Below, one piece after another: positions 1-37,926 of a DNA stretch of 64,000 bases (the first letter of the stretch is position 1; every line of letters begins with the position of its first letter). The position numbers were made by a program, and so were the translations under genes. The notes under the pieces are model-generated. The model was not told where the DNA came from, did not search any database, and saw only the letters and a program-made list of their open reading frames with translations. The DNA lies in NCBI GenBank assembly GCA_051294905.1, contig CM119371.1, forward strand, positions 21,888,001-21,952,000, in the 5' to 3' direction. This DNA is from Botryllus schlosseri. Taxonomy: Eukaryota.

Positions 1-71
1 TTGTGGGATTTCCAAACGTCAATGAGATCCACAAGAACGGTAGCTGGGAGCCGCAGTTGGGAATTACTGGT

Positions 72-5074: not shown

Positions 5075-5830
5075 TCAAGCATGTGTATTTTCATGTGTTT
5101 TCAAGTGATGAAGCATGCTAAACGCTTTTCCGCAGATCTGACATGCATAGTTTTTGACTCCAGTATGTGTATTGCCATGTCTTCTCAAGTTCGAAAGCTG
5201 GCTAAATGTTTTTCCACAGATTTGACAGGCATATTGTTTGACTCCGGTATGTGTATACCCATGTGTTTTCAAGTGATGAAGCTGGCTAATAGCTTTTCCG
5301 CAGATCTGACATTCATAGTTTTTGACTCCAGTATGTGTATTTCCATGTCTTTTCAAGCCCCGAAGCTGGCTAAACGCTTTTCCGCAGATCTGACACTCAT
5401 AGTTTTTGACTCTTGTATGTGTATTTTCATGTTTTTTCAAATCATAACGCCGGGTAAATGCTTTTCCGCAGATGTGACATTCATAGTTTGTGACTCCGGT
5501 ATGTGTAATCCCATGTTTTTTCAAGTTACCGAGCTGACTAAATGCTTTTCCGCATATCTCACACTCGTAGTTTTTGACTCCAGTATGTGTATTTCCATGT
5601 TCTTTCAAGCTGCTATGCTGGGTAAATGCTTTTCCACATAATTCACATTTATACTTTTTGATTCCAGTATGTATATCTCCATGCCTTTTCAAGTCACCAA
5701 GCCGGGCAAACGATTTTCCACAGATCTCACATTCAATATTCCTATATTCAAGGTGGAATTGCAGGTGAATTTTCAATCCGTCTGGAAAATGAAAGCTCAT
5801 TCCACAGACCAAACACATATTCTTCGTCAT
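5075..5830 (-). CDS. Tandem C2H2 zinc-finger protein, 9 fingers, 251 aa (ZNF-B1)
   Basis: Nine C-x2-C-x12-H-x3-H fingers with TGVKNY-type linkers. An in-frame TAA ends 9 nt upstream of the ATG. The stop TGA replaces the linker Gly codon. Confidence 0.9.
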   Translation of the reverse strand: MTKNMCLVCGMSFHFPDGLKIHLQFHLEYRNIECEICGKSFARLGDLKRHGDIHTGIKKYKCELCGKAFTQHSSLKEHGNTHTGVKNYECEICGKAFSQLGNLKKHGITHTGVTNYECHICGKAFTRRYDLKKHENTHTRVKNYECQICGKAFSQLRGLKRHGNTHTGVKNYECQICGKAISQLHHLKTHGYTHTGVKQYACQICGKTFSQLSNLRRHGNTHTGVKNYACQICGKAFSMLHHLKTHENTHA

Positions 5831-5839
5831 TCTTCTTGA

Positions 5840-5872
5840 TTATCCACAAATTACTTCTTCAAGTGCACACAT
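5840..5872 (-). promoter_or_regulatory. uORF MCALEEVICG* in the 5' leader of ZNF-B1 (identical copy at 10826-10858)
   Basis: ATG at -42 and TAA ending 9 nt before the main ATG. The same arrangement occurs at 17318-17347 and 37936-37968. Confidence 0.55.
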
Positions 5873-5962
5873 GAAGCGATCGTTCTCTGATTGAAAACGA
5901 ATATATTCCAATAGCTTGTAATGAGCTATTAAATAGTATTAGAATACTTATATTATAGAAAA

Positions 5963-5990
5963 TCTGTCTGAACATACAAATGACAAATTA
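5963..5990 (-). promoter_or_regulatory. Putative 3' splice acceptor (tttgtatgttcag/acag) ahead of the coding exon
   Basis: Pyrimidine-rich tract plus CAG ~135 nt upstream of the ATG. Paralogous acceptors lie at 17439-17440 and 38057-38058, the latter with a cttaac branch-like motif. Confidence 0.55.
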
Positions 5991-6098
5991 CAACATTCAA
6001 CCAATACAAGAATAAAAAACATAGAATATATATCAATAATGGATAAGTTGCATTTTTAGGCATTGTAACGATCGGGAATAAGACAATTCAGACGAGTA

Positions 6099-6327
6099 CC
6101 GTAATTTTCCAAGTATAGTACGCCCCCATGTATAATACGCACCCTCACAATGGCATGCGATTTCTGGGAAAAAGCCTGTACCCATGTATAGTACGCACCC
6201 TGCATTCACAGTACATGAATAGCTGTGTTTTAGTACGCGATGTTGTTCTGTTTTGCGATGTCACTGTCGAACAATCATGACATAACCCTCGCTAATCATT
6301 ATGCAAATAACGGCATTGTCTCTAAAC
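6099..6327 (+). mobile_element. Tc1/pogo-type MITE, left part (family P); identical copy at 11085-11313
   Basis: TA followed by the CCGTAATTTTCC terminus; matches the full copy at 33395-34202. The empty site is seen in the paralogue at 17591 (gacgagta|gttcc). Confidence 0.8.
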
Positions 6328-6890
6328 CAGAGGTCTCAAACACGCGGCCCGCGAGAGCATTTTGTGCGGCCCGCGACGGCATTTTGGAATTTCAAGTATT
6401 CAACAATATATTCACGTGCCATACATCTTTTTCAGATATGAGATCTTAAAGTTCAACCTAAAACTACTATAAAGATCACTGAAATCTAGACAAACTTCAT
6501 TATCACATCACTTTTAAAAGTAGAAGTAGTAGCAGTAGAAGATCTGCTATTACGTCACATTTCCAATCCATGATGATAAAACATGACCCTTGGTGATTCG
6601 TGACAGAAAATTGTGATTTGGTTTGGTGCAACCTTCTCGTAAAATTACTCGATTTGGGATTGACTGGGTGAGTTATTAAAAACGACGTGAATGTAGTCGG
6701 GTCAAACGGTAAAATCAGAGAAGGATTTGCGATTGGGAACGGTGACTTGCTATTCCTACGGACAAAACAATCTATGAAACTGTCATGGGGAAGAGTAATA
6801 TATCACAACATCGTTGCTTGCGTTGCGTAGAATATATAGCTATCTAATCAGGTCAGTATGGCAACCCTGGCATTCTGTGACCCCCATGAC
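6328..6890 (+). mobile_element. hAT/Charlie-like non-autonomous element (family E), left part
   Basis: CAGAGGTCTCAAAC terminus with GGCCCGCG subterminal motifs; homologous (inverted) to 26288-27805. Confidence 0.75.
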
Positions 6891-7560
6891 AAGGGCGTTT
6901 TTTTTTTTGACATGTCTAAAAAGTCAAAATTAGGTCAAAATTGTTGCGTTAGGTCAAAAAATGTCAAAATTGTTTACGAAGTTCAAACTTTTTTGCAACC
7001 TGCATTTCGTTTGTATCGTAGATTTTGCACTTTCGGTGCACTTATCATTAGGCATTTTACAGCTTGTTGCCTACTTTATAGGCCTACCGTTGTAGATGGC
7101 CCCGTGTCTGCTCATTGTGAATCATATTAAACATTAAAATGAAACAAATGGTGTTATGCTCAACGTACCGCAATATCCCAACTGAAGCAAGACTGCGTGG
7201 GCATTGCATGGTTCTTATATCAAGAAGCGCACGATGAAAAATTGTTATGTAGACAGCGTTGTCAGAATGAAGCAACACGGTTGGTCACCATCAGCAGCGT
7301 ACGCACAACTTCAGTGTTGTCAGCCAACAACTGCTGCTGGTGAACGTTCTTTCTCCATTCTTGGAAAGCTACTGAGTAAGGACAGACAGACACTTTCTAC
7401 CCGAGAGTGTAGGAAAGTATGTTTCGTTGTACTACAATTTGATTTGATTATTTCCACCATAATGCGTAATGTAACTACTGGAATTCTTCATAGGGCCAGA
7501 TTTCGATAAAATATTAGTTTTTTCATTTAAAAATTTGTCAGTTTTTGAGCCAAAAAACTT
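6891..7560 (+). mobile_element. Internally deleted hAT element (family H), truncated by the duplication junction
   Basis: Left TIR aagggcgtttttttttttgac and the transposase remnant QPTTAAGERSFSILGKLLSKDR are present; the right TIR is missing. Confidence 0.8.
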
Positions 7561-9085
7561 GATTGATCACAATAACTGTATAAGTCATTGAAGTCACATA
7601 ATATACATCATCATGGTATTATTTGTGCACAACTTCGCTTTATGCGCATATTCAAGGTTTCCAAACTTTTTCTACTCACAAGCTCGTTGCAGCAAATTTT
7701 CAAGATTAGGGTCACCTGAACCATTGGCCGTGATCGATTTTATATAAGCAAGTAGGCCTACGAGAAAACGACAAGCGCCACTGGCAGGTAGAATTATATG
7801 ATTTTCATCAGGACCTCCGTGAATTTTACGTTCTGCCACCCCATTTACCCATTACGACAAAAACTGATCATGCTAGAGTTGGAAAATGTTGACGCAATAT
7901 TGATGATTTAACCTCAGCAAGTGACGTGACTCTTTTCCCCTCTCCCTCTTTCCGTCTCTTCCTCTTTCCCAGAACCGAAAGACACATGATTAGGAATCTG
8001 CGCATTGGTCTTGAAAGCTTCGATACAAAATCCATATCAAGTTAATTGAACTTCTTTGCTGACAGGGAAATATTGGTATCCATCCAGCTAATGTGCATAT
8101 GTATGAGGGTAACTTGGCATTGTTACCGTTTATTTCAGCAATCAAACAAGGATCCCCTTCAGGCTGTCTTTGTAAGGATGCTGCATAGTGCAATGCAGTT
8201 AAGCGATATTGCAAGCGAAAAGCTCGCAGAACACCATATAAGACCATAAGCTATGATACTCTAGCAATCTGAACACAACGGAATGTAATGAAGGAGTGAA
8301 AATGTCAATGTTGTATGAAATGGATGGCAGAAACAAGCACATATTCACAAGATAGTTACTACACTGAAACTTATAATGAAATCGAACCTAATGTACACAG
8401 ACTGCTAATAATTAGAGAATATGGGAATGGATCTGTAGCCTACTTGCAGCTTGAAGTGTTTGTGCAACCAGTATAGCATTACCTCATCACACTGTGATAG
8501 AAAAATTCGAACATCCACATCAAACTGCTTTGTTCTGCACTGCTCTGTTTTATTGAAGCTGATTGGTGCAGTGCAAACCAGATCTTTCAGTTAGTAAGCA
8601 TACGCTTTCATTTATATGTGAAGAAGAGGCACTCATATTCACGTAATGATACAAGTGAGTATGTAGTGGTAAGAAGACCAAAGGCACGTAACCATTTATT
8701 CAATGCCATCCCAGAAATTAGGCATCCTAAAGAGGTGCTATATATATATATGTGTTACATACTAGTTCATATTTCATTGCAATATTAAATCAAGTTGATG
8801 TGCTGGCAGAGTGAATGGACGATTCCACTGAGTAACAGCATATTTTACTATAAGCTATTCAATGTTAGTGTATTATGATAATATTGAAAATTATCATCAC
8901 AAATATCATCTATTCCTTATTCCTTCATTTTAAAGTTGTCCTAAATTTGTGCGTCAACAGTAACATCCAGCAGCAGAAACGTTTTTTCAACTTGAACACA
9001 CAAACGAATCGTGAATGTATGAAACATTTAAATAGCAATTCATCAAATATAGAATGTTACCGATGGTTGTTGATTCAAAAAGTCT

Positions 9086-10060
9086 AGTACATTGGATGTA
9101 TCTTGTGTTCACGAAAACTCGCTTCTCGCTGTAATGACTTTTAATAGATATCACAGAAACACCGTACTTACTACCTCTAGCATGAATATACAGTGGATAA
9201 CGATCTACTGGTGAATAGTAAGTAAACGCATTTCCACTGGTCTAGCACTCATAGTTTCAGATGTGCATTTTCAACACTTGACAAGTTACCAAGCAGGGCA
9301 GATCTGACATGCATAGTTTTTGAGTCCAGTATGTATATTTTCCTGTATTTCCGAGTTACCAAGCCGGGTAAACGCTTTTCCGCAGACCTGACACTCATAG
9401 TCTTTGCCTCTAGTATGTGTATTTCCATAGGTTTTGAAGTGACTAAGCTGGAAAAATACTTTTCCGCAGATCTGATATTCGTTAGTTTCGGTTTCCGGAA
9501 TGTGCATTCTCATGTGCTCACAAGTTACTGAGCAGGGTAAACGGTTTTCTGCAGATCTCCCATACATAGTTTTCGACAACAGTATGTTCGTTTCCATGTA
9601 TTTTGAAGTTACCAAGCCATGCAAACGCTTTTCTGTAGATCTGAAATGCATTAGTTTCTGATTCCGGTTTAAGTTACTGAGCCACGTAAACGGTTTTCCA
9701 CAGATCTGTCATGCGCAGTTTTTGACTCCGATGTGCGCATTTTCATGTATTTTCAAGTGAAAAAGCCGTTTATACGGTTTTCCGTCGACCTGACACTAAT
9801 TGTTTTTGACTCCAATATGTTTATTTCGATGTGTTTTCAGATGAACAAGCCAGTTAAACGATTTTCCGCAGCTTTAACCTGCAAATGCTTCGAATCCGGT
9901 AGGTGTATGTCCGAGTAATTTCAAGTGATCAAGCTGGCTAAATGCTTTTCTGCGGATCTGCAACGCATAGCTATCGACTCCAATAAGAGTATTTCCATTT
10001 CTTTTCAAGTTAGCAAGTCTGGTAAACGCTTTTCCATAGACCTGACACTCAGTTTTTGAC
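9086..10060 (-). pseudogene. Decayed zinc-finger tail of ZNF-B2
   Basis: Duplicate of 4100-5074. Confidence 0.85.
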
Positions 10061-10816
10061 TCAAGCATGTGTATTTTCATGTGTTTTCAAGTGATGAAGC
10101 ATGCTAAACGCTTTTCCGCAGATCTGACATGCATAGTTTTTGACTCCAGTATGTGTATTGCCATGTCTTCTCAAGTTCGAAAGCTGGCTAAATGTTTTTC
10201 CACAGATTTGACAGGCATATTGTTTGACTCCGGTATGTGTATACCCATGTGTTTTCAAGTGATGAAGCTGGCTAATAGCTTTTCCGCAGATCTGACATTC
10301 ATAGTTTTTGACTCCAGTATGTGTATTTCCATGTCTTTTCAAGCCCCGAAGCTGGCTAAACGCTTTTCCGCAGATCTGACACTCATAGTTTTTGACTCTT
10401 GTATGTGTATTTTCATGTTTTTTCAAATCATAACGCCGGGTAAATGCTTTTCCGCAGATGTGACATTCATAGTTTGTGACTCCGGTATGTGTAATCCCAT
10501 GTTTTTTCAAGTTACCGAGCTGACTAAATGCTTTTCCGCATATCTCACACTCGTAGTTTTTGACTCCAGTATGTGTATTTCCATGTTCTTTCAAGCTGCT
10601 ATGCTGGGTAAATGCTTTTCCACATAATTCACATTTATACTTTTTGATTCCAGTATGTATATCTCCATGCCTTTTCAAGTCACCAAGCCGGGCAAACGAT
10701 TTTCCACAGATCTCACATTCAATATTCCTATATTCAAGGTGGAATTGCAGGTGAATTTTCAATCCGTCTGGAAAATGAAAGCTCATTCCACAGACCAAAC
10801 ACATATTCTTCGTCAT
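10061..10816 (-). CDS. Tandem C2H2 zinc-finger protein, 9 fingers, 251 aa (ZNF-B2, identical to ZNF-B1)
   Basis: Identical translation to 5075-5830. Confidence 0.88.
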   Translation of the reverse strand: MTKNMCLVCGMSFHFPDGLKIHLQFHLEYRNIECEICGKSFARLGDLKRHGDIHTGIKKYKCELCGKAFTQHSSLKEHGNTHTGVKNYECEICGKAFSQLGNLKKHGITHTGVTNYECHICGKAFTRRYDLKKHENTHTRVKNYECQICGKAFSQLRGLKRHGNTHTGVKNYECQICGKAISQLHHLKTHGYTHTGVKQYACQICGKTFSQLSNLRRHGNTHTGVKNYACQICGKAFSMLHHLKTHENTHA

Positions 10817-11313
10817 TCTTCTTGATTATCCACAAATTACTTCTTCAAGTGCACACATGAAGCGATCGTTCTCTGATTGAAAACGAATATATTCCAATAG
10901 CTTGTAATGAGCTATTAAATAGTATTAGAATACTTATATTATAGAAAATCTGTCTGAACATACAAATGACAAATTACAACATTCAACCAATACAAGAATA
11001 AAAAACATAGAATATATATCAATAATGGATAAGTTGCATTTTTAGGCATTGTAACGATCGGGAATAAGACAATTCAGACGAGTACCGTAATTTTCCAAGT
11101 ATAGTACGCCCCCATGTATAATACGCACCCTCACAATGGCATGCGATTTCTGGGAAAAAGCCTGTACCCATGTATAGTACGCACCCTGCATTCACAGTAC
11201 ATGAATAGCTGTGTTTTAGTACGCGATGTTGTTCTGTTTTGCGATGTCACTGTCGAACAATCATGACATAACCCTCGCTAATCATTATGCAAATAACGGC
11301 ATTGTCTCTAAAC

Positions 11314-13135
11314 CAGAGGTCTCAAACACGCGGCCCGCGAGAGCATTTTGTGCGGCCCGCGACGGCATTTTGGAATTTCAAGTATTCAACAATATATTCA
11401 CGTGCCATACATCTTTTTCAGATATGAGATCTTAAAGTTCAACCTAAAACTACTATAAAGATCACTGAAATCTAGACAAACTTCATTATCACATCACTTT
11501 TAAAAGTAGAAGTAGTAGCAGTAGAAGATCTGCTATTACGTCACATTTCCAATCCATGATGATAAAACATGACCCTTGGTGATTCGTGACAGAAAATTGT
11601 GATTTGGTTTGGTGCAACCTTCTCGTAAAATTACTCGATTTGGGATTGACTGGGTGAGTTATTAAAAACGACGTGAATGTAGTCGGGTCAAACGGTAAAA
11701 TCAGAGAAGGATTTGCGATTGGGAACGGTGACTTGCTATTCCTACGGACAAAACAATCTATGAAACTGTCATGGGGAAGAGTAATATATCACAACATCGT
11801 TGCTTGCGTTGCGTAGAATATATAGCTATCTAATCAGGTCAGTATGGCAACCCTGGCATTCTGTGACCCCCATGACAAGGGCGTTTTTTTTTTTGACATG
11901 TCTAAAAAGTCAAAATTAGGTCAAAATTGTTGCGTTAGGTCAAAAAATGTCAAAATTGTTTACGAAGTTCAAACTTTTTTGCAACCTGCATTTCGTTTGT
12001 ATCGTAGATTTTGCACTTTCGGTGCACTTATCATTAGGCATTTTACAGCTTGTTGCCTACTTTATAGGCCTACCGTTGTAGATGGCCCCGTGTCTGCTCA
12101 TTGTGAATCATATTAAACATTAAAATGAAACAAATGGTGTTATGCTCAACGTACCGCAATATCCCAACTGAAGCAAGACTGCGTGGGCATTGCATGGTTC
12201 TTATATCAAGAAGCGCACGATGAAAAATTGTTATGTAGACAGCGTTGTCAGAATGAAGCAACACGGTTGGTCACCATCAGCAGCGTACGCACAACTTCAG
12301 TGTTGTCAGCCAACAACTGCTGCTGGTGAACGTTCTTTCTCCATTCTTGGAAAGCTACTGAGTAAGGACAGACAGACACTTTCTACCCGAGAGTGTAGGA
12401 AAGTATGTTTCGTTGTACTACAATTTGATTTGATTATTTCCACCATAATGCGTAATGTAACTACTGGAATTCTTCATAGGGCCAGATTTCGATAAAATAT
12501 TAGTTTTTTCATTTAAAAATTTGTCAGTTTTTGAGCCAAAAAACTTTTTCAGGCCAAACTACTTCGTAAGGACAGACAGTTTCAACCAGAAATGAATATT
12601 AGTAGTACAATTTTAACATTATGTGCGAAAACACCTAATTTGCACACGCGAGGTTAAAATTTGGTCAAAATTCAGTTTTTTTAGGTCAAAAAAAGTCAAA
12701 AATTAGATTTTTTAGGTCAAAATCTTCCGTTTTTTAGGTCAAAAAAAAATCGCCCTACCCATGACGTATAGTTGGTTTGTTCTCATTATCCATTTTATTA
12801 TCGGTGTCGAGAAAGACATTAGTACGCTCTACAGTTGTTACACCAATGAATTCTTTGCCGATCAGACATTTCTTTTTCAGGGGTTCCTAACCAGGGTCCC
12901 TAGATCCCATCGGGGTACGAAGCACCACATCAGGGTGCACGAGATGCATTGTGGAATTAGGTCTATATGCTGTGGAATATTTTTCTGGCCAATTGATTCA
13001 AATGGAAAATAGTATTGGCGCTATGCGCGATTTTATGTGAATGGGCTTTCTGATTTTCATATAGGTACCATCAGAAATTGTGTTGAAAATGGACAGGGGC
13101 AACGAGAAATCTCATCGGAATCACAAGGGGTGCAA
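11314..13135 (+). mobile_element. hAT/Charlie-like element (family E), 3'-truncated, interrupted by family H
   Basis: CAGAGGTCTCAAAC terminus; the segments 11314-11876 and 12766-13135 are inverted homologues of ~26860-27805. Confidence 0.75.
11877..12757 (+). mobile_element. Complete non-autonomous hAT element (family H, 881 bp) with transposase C-terminal remnant
   Basis: TIRs (A/T)AGGGCG(T/A)TTTTTTTTTGAC; perfect 8-bp TSD CCCATGAC (11869-11876 / 12758-12765). The motif PTTAAGERSFS..L.SKDR resembles the hAT C-terminal dimerisation domain. Confidence 0.9.
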
Positions 13136-15849
13136 GACGCATCCTCTCCTATGATGTCTATAACTCATTAATTAAAAAATTGGGGCATACCTCTGGGGTT
13201 GATACCACTTCAATAGCATAGAGATATATAAAATAGTTACTATGTTATGTAGAATTTGAATTGAATTGCCTTCCGCGAGATCACACGATTACGTAATCGA
13301 TTACTCATCGGCGGCGGCCGCTTGATTCGTGCTTATCATGTCTACCTTTCCAAGATCGTAGCGCTGGGCTATGAAGCGCTATAGTAGCATGTAATGTCTC
13401 GTTGGAACGTAGAGATTCATGCGAAACGCAATCAGGTGGCCATATACCAAGAGAGGGCCTAAGTACTACGTCAGGAGATATAGAAGAACAAAATTGTATG
13501 TTATTTTCAAGAATCGAGAACATTTTCTCGCACACCGCTATTCTCTCTGGCGTCTGAGCCGTTAGAGTATCTCAGACCGCTAGGCAGCTACTTCAGGTTA
13601 AGGGCAATATATTGGGCCTCGATTTAAGCCATATGGATGATATTTTATCGCCTTTTTTGTGGATGCAGCAAAATATTGGTCAGTAGGCCGGCCGATTAGA
13701 AAGGGTTAACATCTTGAGAAAAGCCTGTAACAATTAACTGGAAATTAGTCAGCTTCATTGAAATAACCTGGTATTACTGATATTGAAGAACGTGTTCCGG
13801 CTAATTTGAAACCGATTGATGCATCAATGCAGCATTGTGATGACCGAAAAAAAGAAGGCGACATTCTAGTTCTGTAATTACTGAACAAGACTCGAACCTC
13901 TTTTATTTTGCGATTACGAATACATCAAATATATATTTGTTCAGCCAACTGGACATATGACACAGACTAGAAGAGATCTGGGGACTGCATTTGAGAATCA
14001 CTGATTAAAGTGATGCAATTTACAGACGGACAATAAGCATTACTACTGAGGCACAATGTTAAACAGCGCCCTGCGCGCATATTCCAAAAAGGAAATCTAT
14101 GTAGCTTGCACCTTTGATAAAACCATAGTAACAGTGTATGATAATTTTAATCCATTATGCGCCTCCATAGTGTCAGATTGCCACAGCAGATCAGTGCTCA
14201 GTTGTCAGTATAATGATTCATCACAAGTTTTACGCAGAATACCATTCCTTACCCAATCATGTTGGCTAAGCTAGGGACTGACACTGGTTTTGCTCTACAG
14301 CTGATAAGTTCTTGGAAAAGCAACCGTCATGAATCAAACCATAAATATGTGGCCTGCTGGGACAGAAGTGAAACCACCGACCAAAAGTGATTTTTCTTAC
14401 AGCCTGGAGCTATAATTGAACTCTAACCAGCAGTGTCTGAAAGACAGGTAGCGATAGGTAGTTCAATTGACATATTGATAAGCCCAATGATTATTCATAT
14501 TACGATTTACCTCAGTTTTCCCTTTAGTAAACAGGGTTAAGAAGTTGTTGTAGCCGCTTCGCAGGTTCATCAAACAAAATAATGTTAAAGGGCACTGTGG
14601 TGCAGTGTTGTAGGACTATGAATTACAAAGTAATCTGAACGAAACGAAATCTTATGGAGTAACACAATCATTTACAAGATGCAACGCTTGTATGACAGAA
14701 ATACACACAAATTTCGTAAGATATTCAATCAATTCCAAAGCGAAACTGAATAAAAATGATAAGTGTGGACTGTTTACCATCACATCATCACAGTTGATAG
14801 CAAACAAAGATGCGATTATCAGCTGTATCACAGATCATACAGAGATCCATTTCATGTCGCCTCTGTAAGGATGCTGCATACGGCTACTAGTGAAAAAGCT
14901 GGCAGCACACCATATTAGACTGTAAGGAGATTCCTTTTGTAGCGCTATGATTCACCGATAATTTGAAAAAATTGAAATCTCATGAAGGACTAAAATGTCG
15001 ACAAATTGCATGCAATGGATGGCAAAAATAACGGATGTTTACAAAATGGCCACACCATTACAACTTGAAACGAAATTGAAAACGATATGCGCAAACTGCT
15101 AATTACCAGAGAATCTGACGAAGGATAATGCACGTGCAACAATAGTATTAGCTCACCACACAGATTTGAATATCCACATCAAACTGTTCTGAACAACAGA
15201 TCCAGGCCAAATTACCACAAAGTGTTCATTGAAACTGATTAATGCAGTGAGAAACAACTTTTTCAGGAATTCATCGTGAGCTATAACTGAAATATGGAAA
15301 CAGGAAAAACATTTTCATACCGGAACAATTAGGTGAGATAAACAACGTATATGGAATTTTTGTGGTAGCGATAAATGGATATTTGCAACACGCTTAGTGG
15401 CACGAAGACACATAACTATTTCTACAATCTCAGCCCAGAAATCATGCAGCCTGCAAGGTCGATCCAAAAATATATTCGCTATTCACTTGTACAGATTTGA
15501 TTGCAACTCTTAATCGTATTGATATGGTGGCAGAGTGAATGCATGACTCCTTTGTATAAAAGCATATTTTAATGAATATTTCTGTCCATATTACTTACTT
15601 TATCATGTTCAAGATCATCATCGCATGAACTACACTTGCGTTTCTCTATTCCTTTGTTCATTTTGAAGTAGTCCTACATTTTTGTATCAGCAGTAACATT
15701 CAGCAACTAAATGCAAAATCGGTTCTTCAGCTGGACAACACAAACTACTCGAACCATTTTAAACAGATGAATGAATTATTTGTCAATCTGACAATGCATC
15801 AATTATAAAATATTAAAAAATTCTAGGACATGAGATGTTTCCTGTGTTC

Positions 15850-16339
15850 ACAAAAATGTGCTTTCAGCAAGAATGACTTTCCGGAGATATCTCACAAATA
15901 TTTGCCACCTCCTGCATGAATATTCACGCATCTTCAAACTCACTGATGAGTAAGTGAACACTTTTCCACGGTATAAAACTTATAGTTTCTTATTTGTATT
16001 CTTATGCGTTTTCGAGTGGCCGATCAAAATACAATCTTTTCATAGATCTGACATGCACAGATTTTGGCTCCAGTATATTTATTTCCATGTCATTTTAAGT
16101 TACCAAGCAGATTAAACGCTTTTCCACAGATATGACACACACGGGTTTAGACTCAGGTACGTGTTTGTCAATATATTTCCAAGGCACAAAGCTGGGTAAA
16201 CGCTTTCCCCCAAATCTGACACACATAGTATTTGACACCGATATGTGTAGTTCCATGTGTTTAACCAAGCCAGTTAAACGCTTTTCCGCAGATCTGACAC
16301 TCATAGTTTTTACTCTAGTATGTATATTTCAATGTGTTT
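15850..16339 (-). pseudogene. Decayed zinc-finger tail of ZNF-C
   Basis: About 5-6 broken fingers (e.g. YECQICGKAFNWLG, YVCQIWGKAFTQL) after the frameshift that ends the ORF. Confidence 0.8.
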
Positions 16340-17305
16340 TCAGGTTGACGAGCCACACAAGATATGACAATCGTGATTTTTGACTTCGTTATGCACTTTT
16401 CCATGTCTTTTCAAGTTACCAAGTTGGGTAAACGCTTTTCCACAAATCTGACACTCATAGTTTTTGCCACCAGTATGTGTATTTCTATGTATTTTCAAGG
16501 ACCAAAGCTGGGTAAACGCTTTTCCACAGATCTGACACTCATAGTTTATCACTCCAGTATGTGAATGTCCATGTCTGGTCAAGTCACGAAGCCGAGTAAA
16601 CGCTTTACCACAGATCTGACACTCATACTTTTTGACTCCGGTATGCGTCGTTAGATGTTCTTTCAAGTGAGCAATCTGGGTAAACGCTTTTCCACAGATC
16701 TGACATGCATAGTTTTTGACTCCTGTGTGTGTATTTCCATGCTTTTTCAAACCATAACGCCGGGTAAATGCTTTTCCGCAGATGTGACATTCATAGTTTG
16801 TGACTCCGGTATGTGTAATCCCATGTGTTTTCAAGTTACCGAGATGACTAAATGCTTTACCACAGATCTCACACTCATAGTTTTTGACTCCTGTATGTGT
16901 ATTTCCATGCTTTTTCAAACCATAACGCCGGGTAAATGCTTTTCCGCAGATGTGACATTCATAGTTTGTGACTCCGGTATGTGTATTTCCATGTGTTTTC
17001 AAGTTACCGAGCTGTCTAAATGCTTTTCCGCATATCTCACACTGATAGTTTTTGACTCCAGTATGTGTATTTCCATGTTCTTTCAAGCTGCTATCCTGGG
17101 TAAACGCTTTTCCACAAAGTTCACATTCATACTTGATTCCAGTATGTATATCTCCATGCCTTTTCAAGTCACCAAGCCGGGCAAACGCTTTTCCGCAGAT
17201 CTCACATTCGGTATTCCTATATTCAAGGTGGAATTGAAGGTGAATTTTCAATCCGTCTGGAAAATGGAAGCTCTTTCCACAGATCAAACACATATTCTTT
17301 GCCAT
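16340..17305 (-). CDS. Tandem C2H2 zinc-finger protein, 11 fingers, 321 aa (ZNF-C)
   Basis: Eleven intact fingers; fingers 6-7 duplicate fingers 4-5. The ORF ends in a frameshifted 12th finger. In-frame TGA-TAA lies upstream of the ATG. Confidence 0.9.
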   Translation of the reverse strand: MAKNMCLICGKSFHFPDGLKIHLQFHLEYRNTECEICGKAFARLGDLKRHGDIHTGIKYECELCGKAFTQDSSLKEHGNTHTGVKNYQCEICGKAFRQLGNLKTHGNTHTGVTNYECHICGKAFTRRYGLKKHGNTHTGVKNYECEICGKAFSHLGNLKTHGITHTGVTNYECHICGKAFTRRYGLKKHGNTHTGVKNYACQICGKAFTQIAHLKEHLTTHTGVKKYECQICGKAFTRLRDLTRHGHSHTGVINYECQICGKAFTQLWSLKIHRNTHTGGKNYECQICGKAFTQLGNLKRHGKVHNEVKNHDCHILCGSST

Positions 17306-18799
17306 TCTTCTTGATTATCAGTAAATTACTTCTTCAAGTGCACACATCAAGCGATCGTTCTCTGATTGAAGACGAATATTTTCCAATAGCCTGAAATGAG
17401 CTAATAAATAGTATTAGAATACTTATATTATAGAAAATCTGTCAGAACATACAGATGATAACTTGCAATAATTAATAAGGTTGACAAATTACAACATTCA
17501 ACCAATCCAAGAATAAAAAACATGGAATATATATCAATAATAGGTATGTTGCATTTTTATGCATTGTAATGATCGGGAATAAGACAATTCAGACGAGTAG
17601 TTCCATAAAGATGTTTTGCCAAATTTTAGAGATCACAAATACATTTTAGATTCCCTTTCGGAAATTTGCTGCGGATAGAACATTTGGGACGTTCAGGTTT
17701 TAACTTGATCGTCCAATAGAATTCACTTCCAAGACACTGAACCGTAAACTTACTCTCCGTTCACCAAGTCCATCGGATGACAATTAGATTCCAAAGTGTT
17801 CCAGACCGTCTGTGACTCCATCAGCACGGTTCGGCTAGGCAATTAGGGACGGATACCTGGTTCGGAGTAGGCACCTGGCCCTGGTCACGTTAAAAACCAG
17901 CACCTACAGCACTAGCCGAATAAGGATTGTGTCTGACAATATTTTGGAGATCAGTGGTTCTTCAACGTTTTCCACCACGAGCCAAATTCAAGTGGCATTG
18001 CCATCTTGCGACCCAAGACTTGCTCATAGAAATGAATACTTTTCAAATGTAACTTTGCTACATTTTTCACCAGCATGTATGAAATAGCGCAAGTGCAGAC
18101 AACCAGCTGTACGCAACGGCGTTTTATGAAACATGATTCATCACATTGATTACAATACTAATTTCAGTAGTTGAAGTCACTTGTCATTCATGGTATTATT
18201 TGTGCATAAATCTCCTTTAATTGTATATTTATGGATCGCAAACTTTTTTGTACTCACAAACTCCTTTCAGGGAATTTTCAAGATTAGGGTCATCTGAATC
18301 ATTGAACGCGATCGATTTTACGGAACCAAGTACCGGAAATCAACATGCACCATTAGCAGGCAGAATATTATCATTTTCATAACAAACACTGTGAATTTTT
18401 TTTCTGCCACCCCATTTTACCCATTACAACGGAGACTGATCATGCTAGAGTTGGAAGATGTTGACGAAATATTGATGATTCAACCTCAGCTAGTAAGACG
18501 TGGCTATGTCTCATATCTTCTCCCCCTTCCTCGTCCAACACAGAAACATACATGATTCAAAAATATGTGCATTCTCATGATCAGGCCACATTTTCATAAC
18601 CGCTGTTCTGTGTTTCATTTCTATTGGCTGTTGGCTATTTTATGTGACAATTTAACGAACATAGAATGTTGCCGACGCTGGATGATTAAAAAAGATCAGT
18701 ATATGGGATGCATATTTTGTTAACGAAAACTCGCCTATATCTCTGTTGACTTCACAGAGATATCACAGACATGTCATACTTCTTACATCTGGCATGGAT

Positions 18800-19091
18800 A
18801 TTCCCACATGTTCTAAAAGTAAACGCATTTTCGCGGGTCTAGCATTCATAGTTTCCGACTCTGTTATGTGTTTATCCATGTATATTCAAGTCTCCAGCGT
18901 GAGCAACCTGTGTAGGCCTATGTCTAGGCCTCTTCAAGTAAGCAAGCTGAATAAAAGTTTTATCGCGGATCTAACATTCATAGTTTTTGACTCCAGTATG
19001 TGTATTTCCATGTATTTTCAATTGAACAAGTTGGCTTAACGACTTGCCACGGATTTGGCACTCATAGTTATTGACTCAGGTGTGTGTATTT
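18800..19091 (-). pseudogene. Zinc-finger relic (ZNF-D, 3' part)
   Basis: Contains KIHGNTHTGVKNYE-type repeats with stops; cut at 19092 by a CAGGGGCGGGCAAA...GGCCCGCG (Charlie-like) terminus. Confidence 0.75.
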
Positions 19092-22127: not shown

Positions 22128-22275
22128 ATATGCTCTTCTAAATGTACATTTCTAGCAAAGGACTTCCCCACACGAATCGCAAAGATTCTTTTTGACCCAG
22201 TCATGTGTATTCTGATGGCTTTCCAAGTTGAATAGTCGAGTAAACAACTTGTTACAGAGCTGACACACATAAATG
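22128..22275 (-). pseudogene. Zinc-finger relic (ZNF-D, 5' part)
   Basis: Translates as YVCQLCNKLFTRLFNLESHQNTH..KKNLCDSCG/frameshift/KSFARNVHLEEHI. Confidence 0.7.
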
Positions 22276-27941: not shown

Positions 27942-28490
27942 CAGGGTTGTAATGACTCGAGTCACGATTTTCGGATGACTCGACTCGACTCATTTTCTCA
28001 AAATACGGAAATGACTCGACTCGACTCGAGTCAATCTGTGTATCACTCGACTTGGACTCGAGTCATTGCGAATGACTCGAAGCAAGTCATTGACTCGAGA
28101 TTCAGACGGCCAAGACCGACTTTCATTGTAATTTTGAAGCCAACACACTATTGGGATTTCGTCTGTTGGTACTGGTGCTTGAAAATGCGACCAGAACCTG
28201 CTAAAAGTGAGGAAAATTGATATATTATAAATGCGAACCATTCAATATCACCAAACAGAGTTAAAAAAGTGGGTTTAGGAAGACTTTAACTGGAAACTGA
28301 GCAGTCAACACAATGACTTGGACTCGGACTCGAGTCATAATACCATGACTCGGACTCGATCCTCTGTTCGCTGACTTGGACTCGGACTTGACTCGGTGGG
28401 AATTGAAAATAACTCGACTTGACTCGAGTCAAAAATATAAAAGTGAGATTGACTTGTGACTCGGAGCCTTGTGACTTGGTTACAACCCTG
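27942..28490. mobile_element. hAT-type MITE (549 bp) with GACTCGAGTC subterminal arrays
   Basis: TIRs CAGGGTTGTAA / TTACAACCCTG; perfect 8-bp TSD TTAAGAAC (27934-27941 / 28491-28498), located inside the host's right TIR. Confidence 0.92.
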
Positions 28491-30164: not shown

Positions 30165-31341
30165 CAGGGATGTCTTTTCCACATGTTTTGATCTTGAAAA
30201 GGGCCTATGGTGGGGTTTGGATGAAGACATTGCCAGTAAACGAAAAAAAAACATTTGTCACGGATTATATGGAAATTGGTCCACTTCATTGAAATAGACA
30301 TGTTAAAACGATGGCGAGATAATTATCAAATACAGTACTTTACACACTGAAATTAACGACCACTAACAGGACAAAAACTGATAATAAGCACATAAAATAC
30401 AGGTAAATATATTCCTGAAGTGATAGTCGTTATCTATATTCTTTGTTGGTCCGATGTAGATTTCTTCACGATACAATGTGATATTATATGATATTTTATT
30501 ATTTGCTCTGCAGCACTCCTAAAGTACTATCACAGGCGAATTATAAGACTAATGGGCATCGTGACAGATCCTATTCATATCAAATGTTATCGTCCTCTTT
30601 TAATGTCATCCTCCATATTCGGTTACTGCCACCCAATTGTATCCATGTATCGTGGTGAAAGACCAATGCTTTTTATTACTATATGACAAGGAGGTCCAGA
30701 TGATATCAAGAGACCCGAAAATGACAAATATGCTCTGTAAGCTCATTGAGTTACCATTTGGTTTCCCTGTATCTTGCAAAGTTTCGAGCAAATAAAAAGC
30801 TTTAGTATCAACGCTTATGTAAAGTTTCAGAAATATGGTTTTCAGCTCATAAATACCATTCTGAATTGCAATCAGCAGCATTTCCACGCCCTGGATCAGT
30901 CAATGTGAAGTAGCGGAGAAATATTCGAACACTGAGCTGCTGGGGAATGCAACTGATGTCTCAGTGGATGTGATTTTGGGAATGACGACTTTGCAATCAG
31001 TAAAAACTTTGAATCAAGGCATAAATGGGATAGATTTCGTGAAATCTAACCTGGTCGGACAATAAAAATCCTAAATATGACTATCACTTGAGGAATATAT
31101 TTACCTGTATTTTAACTGCTTACCAATTCATTTCTTTTTCGTGGTCGCTAATTTCAGTGTGTAAAGTACTCTATTTGAATATTATCTCACCGTCGTTTTA
31201 ACATGTCTATTTCAACATAGTGGACCAATTTCCAGATAATCTGTGTCATATCCTCTTTTTTTTCGTTTACTGACGATGTCTTCATTCAAACACCACCCTA
31301 AGCCCTTGCCAAGATCAAAACAAGTGGAAAAAACATCCCTG
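30165..31341. repeat. Long imperfect inverted repeat (~310-bp arms), foldback-type element
   Basis: 30165-~30475 is the reverse complement of ~31030-31341 (cagggatgtcttttccac ... gtggaaaaaacatccctg). A related arm occurs at 51720-51940. Confidence 0.8.
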
Positions 31342-32059
31342 CAACTCCAGGCATACCTGGAACACGATTTTTGGTCATGTCAGTGTGACGAAATTGGTCA
31401 CAGTAAATACTATTATTTCAAAAATGACCAAAATCTCAATTTGAGTGACCTCGGATTCTACCGGTTGGAATGGAGTCAAATTTAGTAACCTGACGATTTG
31501 ACAACCAAGCCGATGAAATATGAAAAAAAAAGTTTTATTGAACACGACTAACGTTCGAAAAGATAAATTATGATCTGACAGGGCACTGCAACTACCCCAA
31601 ACTGCCCTTGAAGCCAAGCCACTGAGATAGTTGCAAATACAGTGCCTTGTGAACAAAAGATGAGCATGATGAAGAAAATTTGCCCTGGTATAAAATCACC
31701 TCACCGCTCGCTACACTATAGCTATTATGATGTATTTATTGTCACCATCGATATCAAGTAAGCTCTTATTCAATACCATTATTCAAATACATTACAAAAT
31801 AGCTTATGATATCACTTTTCATTACTGGGAAAAACGTTTAATGGTACGAATAGAGTCTGCATCCAACCAGAGACAGTTTTTTGTTCCACGCTGACATTGC
31901 TGAAACAGTAAATTGTTTGCTCATGACATGCACACTTGTACTTACTGGACATTGTGCAACGCGGTTCTAGAGCAGATTGTCTGTAAGTACTGAAAGCTTG
32001 TTGGATGTTGCGAGTAGGCTACACAGTTTCAACCAAGATGACTCTGCAGCCTACAGTTG

Positions 32060-33230
32060 CCAGAAAAGTAAAATGCTCTACATATGTCTCTATCATATGT
32101 ATATTAGGCCTACTAAACAGCAATGTTGCAAAATCACTTCAGAGAAAACGAATTACTGCTGCCAAAAGCCTAGTCAATTCGCAATGGTGCCAAAATTACC
32201 AGCATACCATAAAACAATTCAAAGAGGCAAACTTTTTTGACGATGAACATTAACAAGACAGAGTGGCATTGCAACCTAACTCATGTCCGTGTGTAGTCTT
32301 TAGGCTACTAAGGGTTCGTACGTCCAACATGAATTCAGAGTTGACAACTTTGACTGACCAATGACCATAGATATCTCATTGACTTCAACAGCTATTGAAG
32401 TACATTACGTTAAAAAATTCATTGACTACTGTTATTGGTCTCGATGCTTTATGCCGAGTACTTCATGTCCTCCTATCCAGCCCGCTGACTAGAGAAGTCG
32501 CTCGCCCCTAGCCTAGGGCGTGATGGCTTATTGGCTACAGTTCGAAATTAATTATGACAGAAATATCCAACCAGCAACAAAATGTTTAAGTAATGGAAAG
32601 AATCTGACATAATCATGCAACTGACAATGAAAATGCCAAGTCATTTGCTAAGCCACGGTTTAGCCCTCTATTTCGATAAATTAGGAAATCTGAAGATTCC
32701 AATAGAAAACTTTGGCACACGGATCACCTACTGCCTAATCCTTTACTTAAAATTAAACGTCAGTGGATTTCCAAGGTCTGTAGCATATTTTCCATTTATT
32801 TATCAATCACACGAATCACCAATACAAACCATCCTTATATAAATTACTGACTTTTCTAAATGAGCAAATATAAGTAGAACTAACGACCTTTAGATATCCA
32901 CAGCTAACCAACCAAAACACAAGTAACAAGATTCCATTTCGAAGCGACTAGCCTACCGTACTTGTTTTTAATTTTATCAGAATTGGATCAGCTTTCCATA
33001 TGAACCTCCGTACAAGTACATAGCCTAATGCGCATTTTAGGAACTTAAGCGCACTAATTCGAACAGATTTACGACTATTGCTATACTTAGACAATTTGGA
33101 CAGGAAATAAAGTAGAAAAACTGCTTCGTATACACTTGTATATGTATGAAATATATCAATATCTCTAGTCTAGCAGTAGTTGATTATAGTTCTGACTCCA
33201 CTAGTAGGCTACTATATACTGTGCCCTGAA
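32060..33230. repeat. Paralogous ZNF upstream/intronic module
   Basis: 32060-32580 matches 38148-38400, and 32750-33230 matches 46280-46810. Confidence 0.7.
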
Positions 33231-33394
33231 TGATTCAAGGCTAGCTATTCAACTGAACCAAGCACTAAAAAACGATTTGTTTCACTGAAAGGTAGAATTA
33301 TATTCTTTATATCACACCCTCAGTGCTTTTTTTGTTCTGCGACCTCATTTACCCATACGGCAGAAAGTGATCATGATTGAGTTGGAAGATATTA

Positions 33395-34202
33395 CCGTAA
33401 TTTTCCGAATATAGTGCGCCCCAGTGTATAATACGCACCCTTAAAATGACGTGCACATTCTGGGAAAAAGCCCGTTCCCGTGTATAGTACGCACCATGCA
33501 TTCGCAGTACATTAGTACATGAACAGTTGCGGTTTAGTATTCGATGTTGTTCTGTTTTGCGATGTCACTGTCGAACAATCATGACATGATGATCGCTAAT
33601 CATAATACAATAAGTGCATTGTCTCTAAACAAGAGTAGATAGTACCCAAAGCCTGTGAGATCGGCGTCGCGATAGCTCACGCTAGCGACACACGACATCT
33701 TGTGCATGTGGCCTATTACAATTACATATGCTATTGCTCAGGCCAACGGTTATGTCGGGCGCACCAGTCCTTTTGGAGATGCGACTGATTACGCAAGCGA
33801 TTATATCTTGCGCGCCTGGCCTCTTGTGTATGCGATTGTGAAGGCCTGTCATTAACGCGATGAATCAACAAGGATTGCCGCGCACGCTTGTAGCAGTCAG
33901 CGACCTAATTTCGCTCGCGTACAAACGACAAACCAACTCAGCAAGAGATCGCGTGCTTTGCAGACGACTCTCGTTAATTATAAAGGCGCTATTCGTTAAT
34001 TGGCAACACACTTCTCTATTAAGCAGTGCGTTACACTCTATAATACGAATTACGGGCCCAATGGCTAGAGGTGATGCGCGATTTAAACAAACATGAAGAA
34101 ATGTGTGATTTCAGGTTTTTGATCGAGGGATTTTTTTTCAAGGCTTGCTGTACCCATTTATAAGTAAGTAAAATTTTGCGCATTATACATGGAAAAATAC
34201 GG
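33395..34202 (+). mobile_element. Complete Tc1/pogo-type MITE (family P, 808 bp)
   Basis: TIRs CCGTAATTTTCC / GGAAAAATACGG; TA TSD. Empty-site paralogues lie at ~2890 and ~18450. Confidence 0.9.
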
Positions 34203-35729
34203 TAACGAATGCCGATGATTTTGGCAGAAACTTATCATGATAGAGCTGGAAGATGTTAACGTTATATCGTGTTTTAACCTTAGAAAGTCGCACTTCACTC
34301 TCTCTCGCAATATCTCTCTTTGGACCGAAACACACATGTTACAAAAATCTGTGCATATTCATGATCCCTGATCAGGCTATATTTTCGGAACCTCTGTTAT
34401 TGGCTATTGGCCTATTAAATGAAGCAGAGTTGCCATCATTGAGTTGCACACTGTGAACAAATTTCTATTGATCGTGAGGGGTTTCTTATGGAAACCGTAA
34501 ATCTTGTCTGGAAAGCTCCAAGTTGAAATTCATTTATATTAATACAACTGCTTTACCGACAGGATATGTCCTAGTATCCATCCACCAAATGTGCATATGC
34601 ATAAGGATAACTTGTCATTGTTATCGCGTCTTTCACAAATCAAACGTGGGTCCTCTTTACTTCAGGTCGTCTTTGTAAGGATGCTGCATACTGCTGCGAA
34701 TAGGAGATATTACCAGCGAAAAGCTGGAAGAATACAATATCAGACTATGAGAAGTTTCCAATTGTAGCGCTATGATTAACGACTAATCTGAACGAGACGG
34801 GATGTCATGAAGGAGTGAAAATCTCATCAAGCTCTATGAAATGGATGGCAGAAACGAACACATATTTACAAGATACCCACAAACAACACTACAACTTTAA
34901 ACGAAATTGAAACTGATATGCACAGACTGCTAATTACCAGAGAATGTGGCAATGGATGATGTATTCGCAGTTTAAAAGGTTAGTATAATAAATTATTACA
35001 TTGGATCATCACACTGTAATACAAAAATTCAAACATCCACACCACACGAAACTGCTTCCGAATAACAAACACCGCGCAATTCACCATTCCGTAAGTGTTC
35101 TATTGAAGCTGATTGGTGCAATGCAAACCAAATTCTTCAGTTAGTAAGCATTCATTTCAATTTAAATGTGAAAACAACAGGAGAGATACTCTCATTCACA
35201 TAATGAAGCAAGTGAGTAAAAGATGAGCGAGAAAAGAATGAATTGGGAAACCTGTGACAGCAATAAATAGAGACGTGGGAGAGATTAAGTGACACGATGA
35301 CAAAGGCATGCGACCATTTCTTCAATACGAGCCCGTTAATGACGCACCCCAAAAAGTTGCTACACAGACATATATGCAAAATACCTAGTAGAGATTCTAT
35401 TGCAATAATAAATCAGATTAATGTGCTGGCAGAGTAAATAAACGGCTCCTTGGAAACGGCATGTTATCCTTTAGGGCATTTCCGTCCATATTATTGTATT
35501 GGGTTGAAAATTATCATAATGATCATCATCTATTCGTTTGCTCATTTTAAAGTTGTCCTAAATTTGTGGATCAACAGTAACATTCCGCACCTGAATGACG
35601 AAACGGTTCATTAGCTTGAAAACATTAACGTTTCCAACCATTTAGTATGAATGTATGAAACAGTTCTATGGCTGACAATTTATTCAATATAAAATGTTAT
35701 CGATCCTTTATGATTCAAAGACTCCAGCA

Positions 35730-36225
35730 CATGGGATGCGTCAGGTGGTTAAGAAAACTAGCTGTTCACTGTGATGACTTTCCAGAGACATCACAGACAC
35801 ACAGTACTTGTTACCTCTGGCATGAACATACTTGCATGTTTTTAAATTAACACTGTTGCATTGTAAATACATGCTTTTCCACGGATCTAGGACTCATAGG
35901 TTCCGACTCCGCTATGTGTATTTTTTTGTCTTTTCAAGTGACTGAGCCAGGTAAACGCTATTCTACAGGCCTAACACTCAGTTTTTCACTCTATCATATG
36001 TGTATTTTCATGTGTTTTCAACTGAACAAGCCGGCAAAACGATTTTCCACAGATCTGACATACATATTCTTTGACTCCAGTATGTATATTTGCATGTTTT
36101 TTCAAGCTACCGAGCAGGGTAAATGCTTTTCCTCAGATCTGACACTAATAGTTTTTATGTCCAGTATGTGTATTCCCATGTGCTTTCAAGTCAGCAAGTT
36201 GGCTAAACGCTTTTCCGCAGATTTC
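35730..36225 (-). pseudogene. Decayed zinc-finger tail of ZNF-E (fingers ~21-26)
   Basis: Largely in-frame continuation with accumulating stops: *EICGKAFSQLADLKAH, CQI*GK, CQICGKSFCRLVQLKTH, C*ACR, S*IRG. Confidence 0.85.
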
Positions 36226-37926
36226 TCATCGATAGCTTTTGTCTCCAGTATGTATATTTGCATGTCTTTTCAAGTTACCAAGTAAGGTAAACGCTTTACC
36301 GCAGACCTGACAATCATAGTTTTTACCTCCAGCATGTACATTTCCATGTGCTTTCAAGACACCAAGTCGGGTAAACGCTTTTCCGCAGATCTGACATTCA
36401 TATTGCTTGACTCCGGTATGTGTGGGAACATGTGTTTTCAAGTGGCCTGGCAGCCTGAACGCTTTTCCGCAGATTTGACATAGATAGTTTTTGACTCCAG
36501 TATGTGTATATCCATGTATTTTCAAGTCACCAAGCCCAGTAAATGCCTTTCCACAGATCTGACACTCATGGTTTTTATGTCCAGTATGCGTATTCTCATG
36601 TATTTTCAAGCTACTAAGCTCACTAAAAGCTTTTCCACATATCTCACACCTAACGTTTTTGACTCCAGTATGAATATTTCCATGTGTGTTCAAGTTACTT
36701 AGTCGCACAAACAATTTTCCACATATCGGACAGTCGTACTTTTTTATTCCGGTATGTGTAAGTTCATGTGCTTTCAAGCGTCTGATAAGAGCAAAAGCTT
36801 TTCCACAAATCTCACACGCATAATTTTTGACTCTGGTATGTGTATGTCCATGCCTTTTCAACTCACCCAGCTGAGCAAACACTTTCCCGCAGACCTGACA
36901 TGCATGATTTTTGACCCCAGTATGTTTAAATACATGCTTTTCCAATTCATGAAGCCAGGTAAATGATTTTCCACAGATCTGACATGCACAGTTTTTGACT
37001 CTGGTATGTATATGTCCATGTCTTCTCAAGTAATCAAGCTGATTAAAAGTTTTTCTGCATATCTGACACTCATAACTTTCAAGTCTTGTGTGTGTATTCT
37101 CATGTGCTTTCAAGGAACCATTCAGAGCAAAAGCTTTTCCGCAGATCTCACACGCATAGTTTTGGACTCTGGTATGCGTAACCCCATGCATTTTTAAGTG
37201 ACAAAGCCGGATAAATGCTTTTCCGCAGATCTGACATTCATAATTTCTGACTCCGGTATGTGTATTTTCATGCCTTTTCATGTCACCAAGGCTAGTTACA
37301 GCTATTCCACAGATCTGACATGCATAGTTTTTGACTCCGGTATGTGTATTTACATGTGATTTCAAATCACCAAGCCGCGTGAACGCTTTGCCGCAGATCT
37401 GACATGCATAGTTTTAAACTCCGGTATGTATATGTCTATGTCTTTTCAGATAATAAAACTGGCTAAACGCTTTTCCGCAAATCTGACATGAATAGTTTCT
37501 GACCCCGGTATGTGTATTTCCATGTGATTTCAAGTTACCAAGCCGGTTAAACCCTTTTCCACAGATCTGACACTCATAGCATTTTACTCCAGTATGTGTA
37601 TTTTCATGTCTCCTAAAGTCACCAAGCCGGGTAAACGCTTTTCCACAGATCTCACACTCATAGTTTTTTACTCCTCCAGTATGTGTATTTTCATGTCTTT
37701 TAAAGTCACCAGGCAGGGTGAACGCTTTTCCACAGATCTCACACTGGTAGTTTTCTACTCCAGTATGTGTATTTTCATGTCTTTTAAAGTCACCAAGCCG
37801 GGTAAATGCTTTCCCACAGATCTCACATTCATTATTTCTTTCTTCAAGGTGTAATTGCAGGTGACTTTTCAATCTGTCATGATAATGGAAGTTCTTTCCA
37901 CAGATCCAACACATATCCCTTGTCAT
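36226..37926 (-). CDS. 20-finger C2H2 gene (ZNF-E) interrupted by one in-frame TAA at 37414-37416; as written it encodes a 6-finger, 170-aa protein
   Basis: ORFs 37414-37926 and 36226-37365 are in the same frame; the sequence reads HTGV*NYACQICGK. All 14 downstream fingers keep their Cys2His2 ligands. Confidence 0.85.

Follow-up and report, generated by a model that had tools for sequence, protein, structure and literature searches.

A tandem poly-C2H2 zinc-finger cluster with trimmed arrays in Botryllus schlosseri, probably finger-only and in birth-and-death evolution

Introduction

Poly-C2H2 genes encode several C-x2-C-x12-H-x3-H zinc fingers with TGEKP-like linkers between them. Finger-only, clustered and pseudogene-rich families have already been published, as has ZNF-transposon coevolution independent of KRAB (PMC6444547, PMC10547256). 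In the pea aphid and the milkweed bug, ZF271-like (APEZ) genes carry the array as their sole domain, with 3-45 fingers, and sit in tandem in groups of 4-8; their turnover is described as high, with disrupted pseudogenes and strong expression support (PMC6444547). The need for KRAB- or FiNZ-like modules in ZNF-transposon coevolution is left open in PMC10547256, and work on Styela clava presents zf-C2H2 as the transcription-factor family that is both largest and most variable in tunicates (PMC8122590). Here, we analysed a 64,000-nucleotide stretch of the Botryllus schlosseri genome (GCA_051294905.1, contig CM119371.1, positions 21,888,001 to 21,952,000; hereafter the window), whose arrays probably represent a lineage-specific, finger-only poly-C2H2 cluster in birth-and-death evolution.

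Results and discussion

Organization of the cluster

Four ORFs with an M-x4-C start lie on the minus strand (ATG at 5830, 10816, 17305 and 37926), and an in-frame TAA precedes every ATG by four codons; an earlier sequence-only reading had noted the M-x4-C starts and an in-frame stop just upstream. The ORFs amount to three distinct genes rather than four, since ZNF-A and ZNF-B are a head-to-tail copy. ZNF-A (5075..5830) encodes 9 C2H2 fingers and is terminated by a TGA within the linker behind finger 9, and ZNF-B (10061..10816) has the same sequence. The duplication that holds them spans 4,985 bp (2576..12546; copies 2576-7560 and 7562-12546), with a single mismatch located outside the ORF and one extra base at the junction, and is either very recent or an assembly artefact. 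ZNF-C (16340..17305) encodes 11 fingers, its ORF ending after a deletion in finger 12, and fingers 4-5 and 6-7 seem to have arisen by duplication within the array, with a single difference over 63 bases between C5 and C7. ZNF-E as assembled (37414..37926) encodes 6 fingers, followed by an in-frame TAA at 37414-37416. The tandem fingers of A, C and E repeat with a 28-residue period, and Pfam places zf-C2H2 and zf-H2C2_2 on A, C and both E frames with E values of 1e-33 or better.

The 5' and 3' flanks are common to A, C, E and the remnants described below. The non-coding 3' flank of E (34506..35809, minus strand) is ~65-70% similar to its counterparts at A (3022-4272) and C (14851-15989) and, judged by this similarity, belongs to the duplicated unit. 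Another non-coding block (17837..18607, minus strand), with a second copy at 2329-3020 and a fragmented one at 33226-34398, showed no conserved reading frame and would be either the distal 3' flank or the promoter region of the unit.

Decayed fingers behind the stops

Each of the A/B, C and E arrays is extended by decayed fingers that the sequence-only reading did not report, all on the minus strand. Behind the A stop lie ~10 fingers (4235..5074), none of ten intact, with their copy behind B (9221..10060); behind C there are 5-6 (15908..16375), and none of the five scored is intact. In E, by comparison, fingers 7-20 (36226..37413) are all intact (14/14) and in frame behind the TAA, and are followed by an older stop with five further fingers (35812..36234), one of which is intact. 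Because the 14 fingers behind it are intact and in frame, the TAA of E is a young stop, an allele or an assembly error. A frameshift was ruled out as the break in E, both parts of which share one frame, and an alternative genetic code was likewise rejected, as the breaks differ (TAA in E, at a Lys; TGA in A, at a Gly) and fall at linker positions. Remnant D (18787..19066, minus strand) consists of four broken fingers and retains the family 3' flank, and another broken array, Z (70..488, minus strand), lies at the left end of the window. With A/B, C and E alongside the remnants D and Z, the locus is thus a tandem cluster that includes pseudogenes and in which array length varies from 6 to 20 fingers.

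The C-C-H-H ligands are kept in 26/26 fingers within the ORFs versus 1/20 beyond the old stops. Our literature search found no description of decayed fingers behind stop codons; such fingers also occur in KRAB-ZNF genes. The clearest use of the cluster is as a compact record of array duplication and trimming.

Evolution of the contact residues

Recomputed fingerprints of ZNF-B and ZNF-C match those of the sequence-only reading exactly. For E, QYYR lies within the ORF, but RCHM, WHEK, LRRA and ESSI are E fingers 9, 12, 14 and 16, located behind the in-frame TAA and therefore untranslated as assembled. The described contrast between a homogeneous scaffold and variable positions -1, +2, +3 and +6 holds: these columns are among the most variable (entropy 2.3-2.8 bits), and columns +9 and -2 are variable too (2.3 and 2.1 bits).

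The finger fold is under purifying selection, with omega of 0.03 in the core and at the zinc ligands and 0.38-0.46 at other non-contact positions; at the contacts it is 1.3-1.8, and -1, +3 and +6 are the fastest of these. On a tree made without the contact columns, contact omega is 1.85 (LRT 12.3), a value reached by 1/56 neutral simulations; on the all-column tree it is 1.34 (p 0.09), reached by 7-9/56, and for pre-stop fingers it is 1.38 (p 0.18). The contacts therefore evolve much faster than the scaffold, as had been proposed, but whether their omega exceeds 1 varies with the tree, and an excess over the neutral rate is no more than suggestive. The N-terminal fingers are conserved from gene to gene: the contact residues of fingers 1-5 differ between A and C at 2/20 positions, leaving the first five fingerprints nearly identical, and the same fingers show pN 0.045 and pS 0.116 (Fisher p 0.027). 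This pN of 4.5% compares with a 5' flank divergence of 9/133 (6.8%), and the gap is not large.

We suggest that a ~3.5 kb unit, comprising a 5' flank with acceptor, a single coding exon with the whole array and a 3' flank, was copied in tandem, and that fingers may have been duplicated inside arrays as well. Nonsense or frameshift changes would then trim arrays from the 3' end, after which the cut-off fingers would decay. Retained ORFs would be expressed from transcripts with non-coding 5' exons as small nuclear proteins that presumably bind DNA, their N-terminal fingers conserved and C-terminal ones variable. Base-contact residues changing at the neutral rate or a little faster could allow new copies to read new sequences, and the proteins may act via site occupancy or finger-binding partners.

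Transposons as possible targets

The surroundings are repeat-rich, as the sequence-only reading had noted, and high-copy repeats are abundant. They include a non-autonomous element that carries long terminal inverted repeats (30165..31341), one of many intergenic repeats, and a weak remnant of a hAT dimerisation domain (7186..7506, plus strand; E 0.003, under the Pfam cut-off). Repeats are as dense upstream of E, beyond the range covered by that reading, as between the genes, and proximity to transposon debris is uninformative about targets.

A KRAB-independent transposon-recognition repertoire, engaged in an arms race and blocking the terminal or subterminal repeats of local DNA transposons, would fit the higher contact omega (1.85, with -1, +3 and +6 fastest), the abundant repeats and the correlation of ZNF and TE numbers across animals regardless of accessory domains reported in PMC10547256. 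However, the all-column omega lies within reach of neutral simulations, the pre-stop value has p 0.18, 18/20 contact residues of fingers 1-5 are common to A and C, and in the Hemiptera compared in PMC6444547 repeat content is unlinked to ZF271-like expansion. Binding sites were predicted with a crude recognition code that yields rough patterns only: the A site had 6 matches versus 6.5 expected, and the E site had 17 versus 10.7 expected (3/100 shuffles reach 17), none of them within copies of GGCCCGCG or CGCGGACCCC. The proposed enrichment in the named repeats was thus not found, these rough predictions having missed all named motifs. The window lends transposon targeting no support, and we consider such a repertoire unlikely; by analogy with other families, repeats may still be the single most likely target class, a choice that we make tentatively. 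If the proteins do bind transposons without an effector domain, the cluster would allow the need for KRAB- or FiNZ-like modules in ZNF-transposon coevolution to be tested in an invertebrate chordate.

Expression and the possibility of silent copies

Two RNA runs (X17 and X21, of which 6 and 13 in 100 of the run were read) gave a mean depth of 0-0.5, measured over E only, and a depth of 0 over 34820-36147. In runs X1 and X2, unique non-coding pieces have depths of 3-9 and repeats of hundreds to thousands; these runs behave like DNA, so their cover of E is no evidence of expression. The 15 joints listed of 95 in the reads all lie within repeats, and none has splice ends. Both the near-zero RNA depth on E and the closeness of A-C pN to flank divergence count against the birth-and-death explanation.

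All copies could be silent pseudogenes whose constraint was inherited from functional ancestors, with misassembly accounting for the A/B pair or the stop in E. The RNA depth on E would agree with this, as would the nonsense codon in E, the dead D and Z arrays and an A/B pair one base apart. However, all ten cut-off fingers of A have decayed and all nine ORF fingers are intact, a pattern that requires selection to have continued long after the truncation, and C shows it too. We therefore regard general silence as distinctly improbable.

Effector domains and splice signals

Pfam scans of the five array ORFs returned zinc-finger families only, and no effector family appeared in any of the 163/163 other frames of at least 62 codons within the window. 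KRAB had no match on the array ORFs or on window frames of at least 62 codons, and neither had ZAD, BTB, SCAN or SET. The earlier statement that the coding exon carries no effector domain is supported, though not proven, by the TAA before the array, the lack of a strong acceptor after it and the lack of a Pfam effector in the window.

An in-frame upstream ORF of 10 codons ends at the TAA before A (5840..5872, minus strand), with B likewise, and recurs in C (17318-17347) and E (37936-37968), on the same strand. A candidate splice acceptor of A, predicted from sequence, lies ~135 nt 5' of the A start (5964..5985, minus strand), with putative homologous sites at 17439 in C and 38057 in E. In A, C and E, the stretch from the TAA to finger 1 also contains an AG in a purine-rich context, 19 nt ahead of the first Cys; the triplet reads CAG in E and AAG in both A and C. 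This AG would permit in-frame splicing from an upstream exon, which counts against a finger-only structure.

The arrays might accordingly be last exons that are joined at this weak AG to an unrecognised N-terminal domain encoded upstream, or that have lost such a domain via the shared TAA. The AG occupies an equivalent position in A, C and E, the finger frame of E contains no stop over the 39 codons between the acceptor at 38057 and the TAA, and false finger-only calls are known to arise from small distant exons (PMC2604467). However, the post-TAA AG follows a stretch with 35-53% pyrimidines, compared with 65-76% for the acceptors farther upstream, the 39-codon frame is interrupted in A and C and matches no protein, and the shared upstream blocks showed no conserved coding frame, so that, with no Pfam domain in the window, we find this structure very doubtful. 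Least credible, and close to negligible, is a young, probably ascidian, finger-only family in which a variable C-terminal array would read repeat DNA, a conserved atypical first finger would recruit a silencing partner, stepwise 3' truncation would tune specificity and the conserved in-frame upstream ORF, maybe a relic of a lost N-terminal domain, would act as a restraint.

Comparison with known systems

Whole-protein searches recovered generic finger proteins only, with identities of at most 53% among the 120 best of 1,219 matches; the first 62 residues alone gave no protein match, none of six exact look-ups succeeded, a 44-column profile found only long generic finger proteins, and the Atlas returned C2H2 clusters only. 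The ten top unnamed or little-annotated matches were rejected as relatives, as they belong to a different family with long acidic N-termini and TGVKPF-type linkers.

The part of the Styela clava repertoire study compared here deals with neither clusters nor contact-residue evolution (PMC8122590). Cyprinid FiNZ-ZNF genes resemble the present cluster as a KRAB-independent, lineage-specific tandem expansion for which transposon targeting has been proposed, but are described with a conserved N-terminal module, of which no counterpart was found here, and with knock-down evidence (PMC10547256). Tetrapod KRAB zinc-finger clusters share clustered paralogues, a one-exon array, many pseudogenes and fast -1, +3 and +6 positions, whereas here positive selection is borderline and no KRAB was found (PMC4592553, PMC2604467). 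The ZF271-like (APEZ) genes, compared in anatomy only, are a separate lineage expansion with strong expression, in contrast to the near-zero depth on E, and are alike in tandem clusters, pseudogenes and turnover, and probably in finger-only arrays (PMC6444547). The Botryllus cluster is probably an ordinary birth-and-death poly-zinc-finger cluster, one more case of a widespread pattern.

Array structure and turnover

The minus-strand ORFs A/B, C and E form an ordinary cluster of putative finger-only poly-ZNF genes in turnover; the arrays are real, but the sequence-only reading over-counted and over-read them. In a six-frame scan of the window, all C2H2 fingers fell on the minus strand and grouped into four arrays, whose first cysteine lies at 5815 in A, 10801 in B, 17290 in C and 37911 in E. 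Each ORF does begin with M-x4-C and is preceded by an in-frame TAA, four codons 5' of the ATG; the contact-residue fingerprints reported for B and C match exactly. Frame-preserving one-codon changes occur in two linkers, a deletion in C2-C3 of C (17132-17143, minus strand) and an insertion in E3-E4 of E (37663-37680, minus strand). A stretch of 4,985 bp is duplicated head to tail and carries A in one copy and B in the other; the copies differ by a single mismatch, which is not in the ORF, and an additional base sits where they join. This duplication is either very young or an assembly artefact. With A and B as copies of one sequence, the four readable genes proposed earlier come down to three distinct ones. 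The unit duplicated within the family also takes in about 250 nt of 5' flank and over 1 kb of 3' flank, and these flanks are 65-87% alike among A, C and E. Non-coding sequence downstream of E (32062-33223) repeats that upstream of E (38146-38317 and 46266-46807) but without the interruption by 8 kb of repeats seen in the upstream version; it probably once flanked a lost paralogue on its 5' side.

Profiling the fingers at the DNA level extends every array past its stop and adds two dead ones, D at 18787-19066 and Z at 70-488. It also detects a lone finger (22189-22271, minus strand) of a different sequence type, followed by a broken finger and without the family 5' flank. C-C-H-H is kept in 26 of 26 fingers within the ORFs, versus 1 of 20 fingers intact behind the old stops (those ending the A and C ORFs and the older stop of E), indicating that the genes were trimmed from the 3' end and that the retained part stayed under selection. 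In E, an in-frame TAA follows finger 6; with fingers 7-20 all intact behind it, it is either recent, confined to an allele, or an error. Four of the five fingerprints previously quoted for E lie behind it. Contig runs X1 and X2 behave like DNA, and in them the depth over the flanking repeats exceeds that of single-copy sequence by factors of hundreds to thousands. Contigs of both lack 252 bp (35370-35621) and differ from the window at 40 of about 535 bases in 35622-36156, and their form at 35370-36156 is either a divergent allele or a close paralogue of E. Because the flank of A is homologous across the 252-bp gap, the window's form there looks ancestral. Depth of X1 contigs over the E array (36148-38139) is 87-261 versus 4-9 on unique pieces; the figure is not a copy number but hints that other parts of the genome hold more fingers nearly identical to these.

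Selection on contact residues

A codon model was fitted to 37 fingers, excluding finger 1 and B; omega was 0.03 for zinc ligands and core and 0.38-0.46 for other positions. The contact residues (-1/+2/+3/+6), described earlier as hypervariable, exceed these values, but a significant excess over 1 depends on the tree: omega was 1.34 (p = 0.09) on the all-column tree and 1.85 (p = 0.0005) on a tree without contact columns, and 1.38 (p = 0.18) in the 23 pre-stop fingers. Among 56 neutral simulations (some fits incomplete; model without gene conversion), omega came out too high on the no-contact tree; even so, just one simulation reached the observed value there, and the all-column omega was reached by 7-9. 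Contact pN/pS was 1.0-1.3 in disjoint finger pairs. Against hypervariability throughout, fingers 1-5 are conserved between A and C, with 2 of 20 contact residues differing (pN 0.045, pS 0.116, p = 0.027). Taken together, the omega tests and these conserved fingers suggest that change at contact residues is unconstrained or mildly favoured by selection, chiefly in the C-terminal fingers.

Upstream sequence and expression

Pfam detected nothing but zinc-finger families in the five array frames scanned, and no KRAB, ZAD, BTB, SCAN or SET domain in 163 other stop-to-stop frames of at least 62 codons (the duplication's second copy left out). Four of the 163 gave any match at E 0.01, all below Pfam's cut-offs: the remains of a hAT dimerisation domain, a single finger and two hits judged to be chance. 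Together with the TAA before each array, this agrees with the proposed absence of an effector, although splicing of an upstream exon in frame onto finger 1 is judged only unlikely. The best acceptor-like sites (A 5968/5964, C 17439, E 38057; minus strand), predicted from sequence, lie 145-152 nt before finger 1 and upstream of the TAA, so an exon joined there would be unable to extend the protein. Between the TAA and finger 1, each gene has just two or three AGs, in purine-rich context. Splicing in frame is therefore unlikely, although one AG stands at an identical place in A, C and E. The upstream blocks shared among the genes can be matched in many frames, none of them preferred, as in non-coding homology. 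Some 310 nt upstream of the candidate acceptor of C, a GTAAGT donor-like site (17748-17753, minus strand) could possibly delimit a short first intron with it.

An in-frame upstream ORF of 9-10 codons (5840-5872 in A, 17318-17347 in C, 37936-37968 in E; minus strand) is opened in A/B, C and E by the sole ATG between candidate acceptor and main start, and ends at or just before the TAA, just ahead of the main ATG. Its sequence, M-x-x-L-E-E..., differs among genes mostly non-synonymously and thus bears no sign of coding constraint. In E, this frame runs back to the acceptor through 39 codons without a stop, and a weak search returned no protein match to it.

Reads from two RNA runs, read in part, were compared with 31500-51400, which covers E; depth stayed within 0-0.5 over E and was 0 over 34820-36147. 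Matches were 98-99% partial and nearly all within repeats, and no splice joint was found among the joints listed for this interval. The low depth counts weakly against expression of E in the two samples.

Transposon surroundings and known systems

Many non-autonomous elements surround the arrays, including two of hAT type (52354-54711 and 48761-49847) whose termini read CAGTGG and whose 8-bp target duplications are perfect and 7/8, respectively, and the four repeat motifs singled out earlier occur 8-15 times each. The presumed transposon graveyard is indeed repeat-rich, but repeats are equally dense outside the cluster. Binding-site patterns derived from a crude recognition code, a weak test, gave 6 matches versus 6.5 expected for A and 17 versus 10.7 for E; none fell in the named GC-rich motifs, lending no support to the suggested enrichment.

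A literature search of mainly open-access main texts found no ascidian cluster study describing these ZNF genes. In tunicates, zf-C2H2 numbers are the most variable among transcription factors (PMC8122590), and selection at -1, +3 and +6 is reported together with the caveat of missed N-terminal exons (PMC2604467). The ZF271-like genes of aphid and milkweed bug have been described as finger-only expansions that are clustered and rich in pseudogenes, with no link to repeat content in those insects (PMC6444547). Transposon recognition by the A, C and E arrays, putative here, is plausible and already a published idea: PMC10547256 chiefly argues that ZNF genes and transposons coevolve whether or not accessory domains are present.
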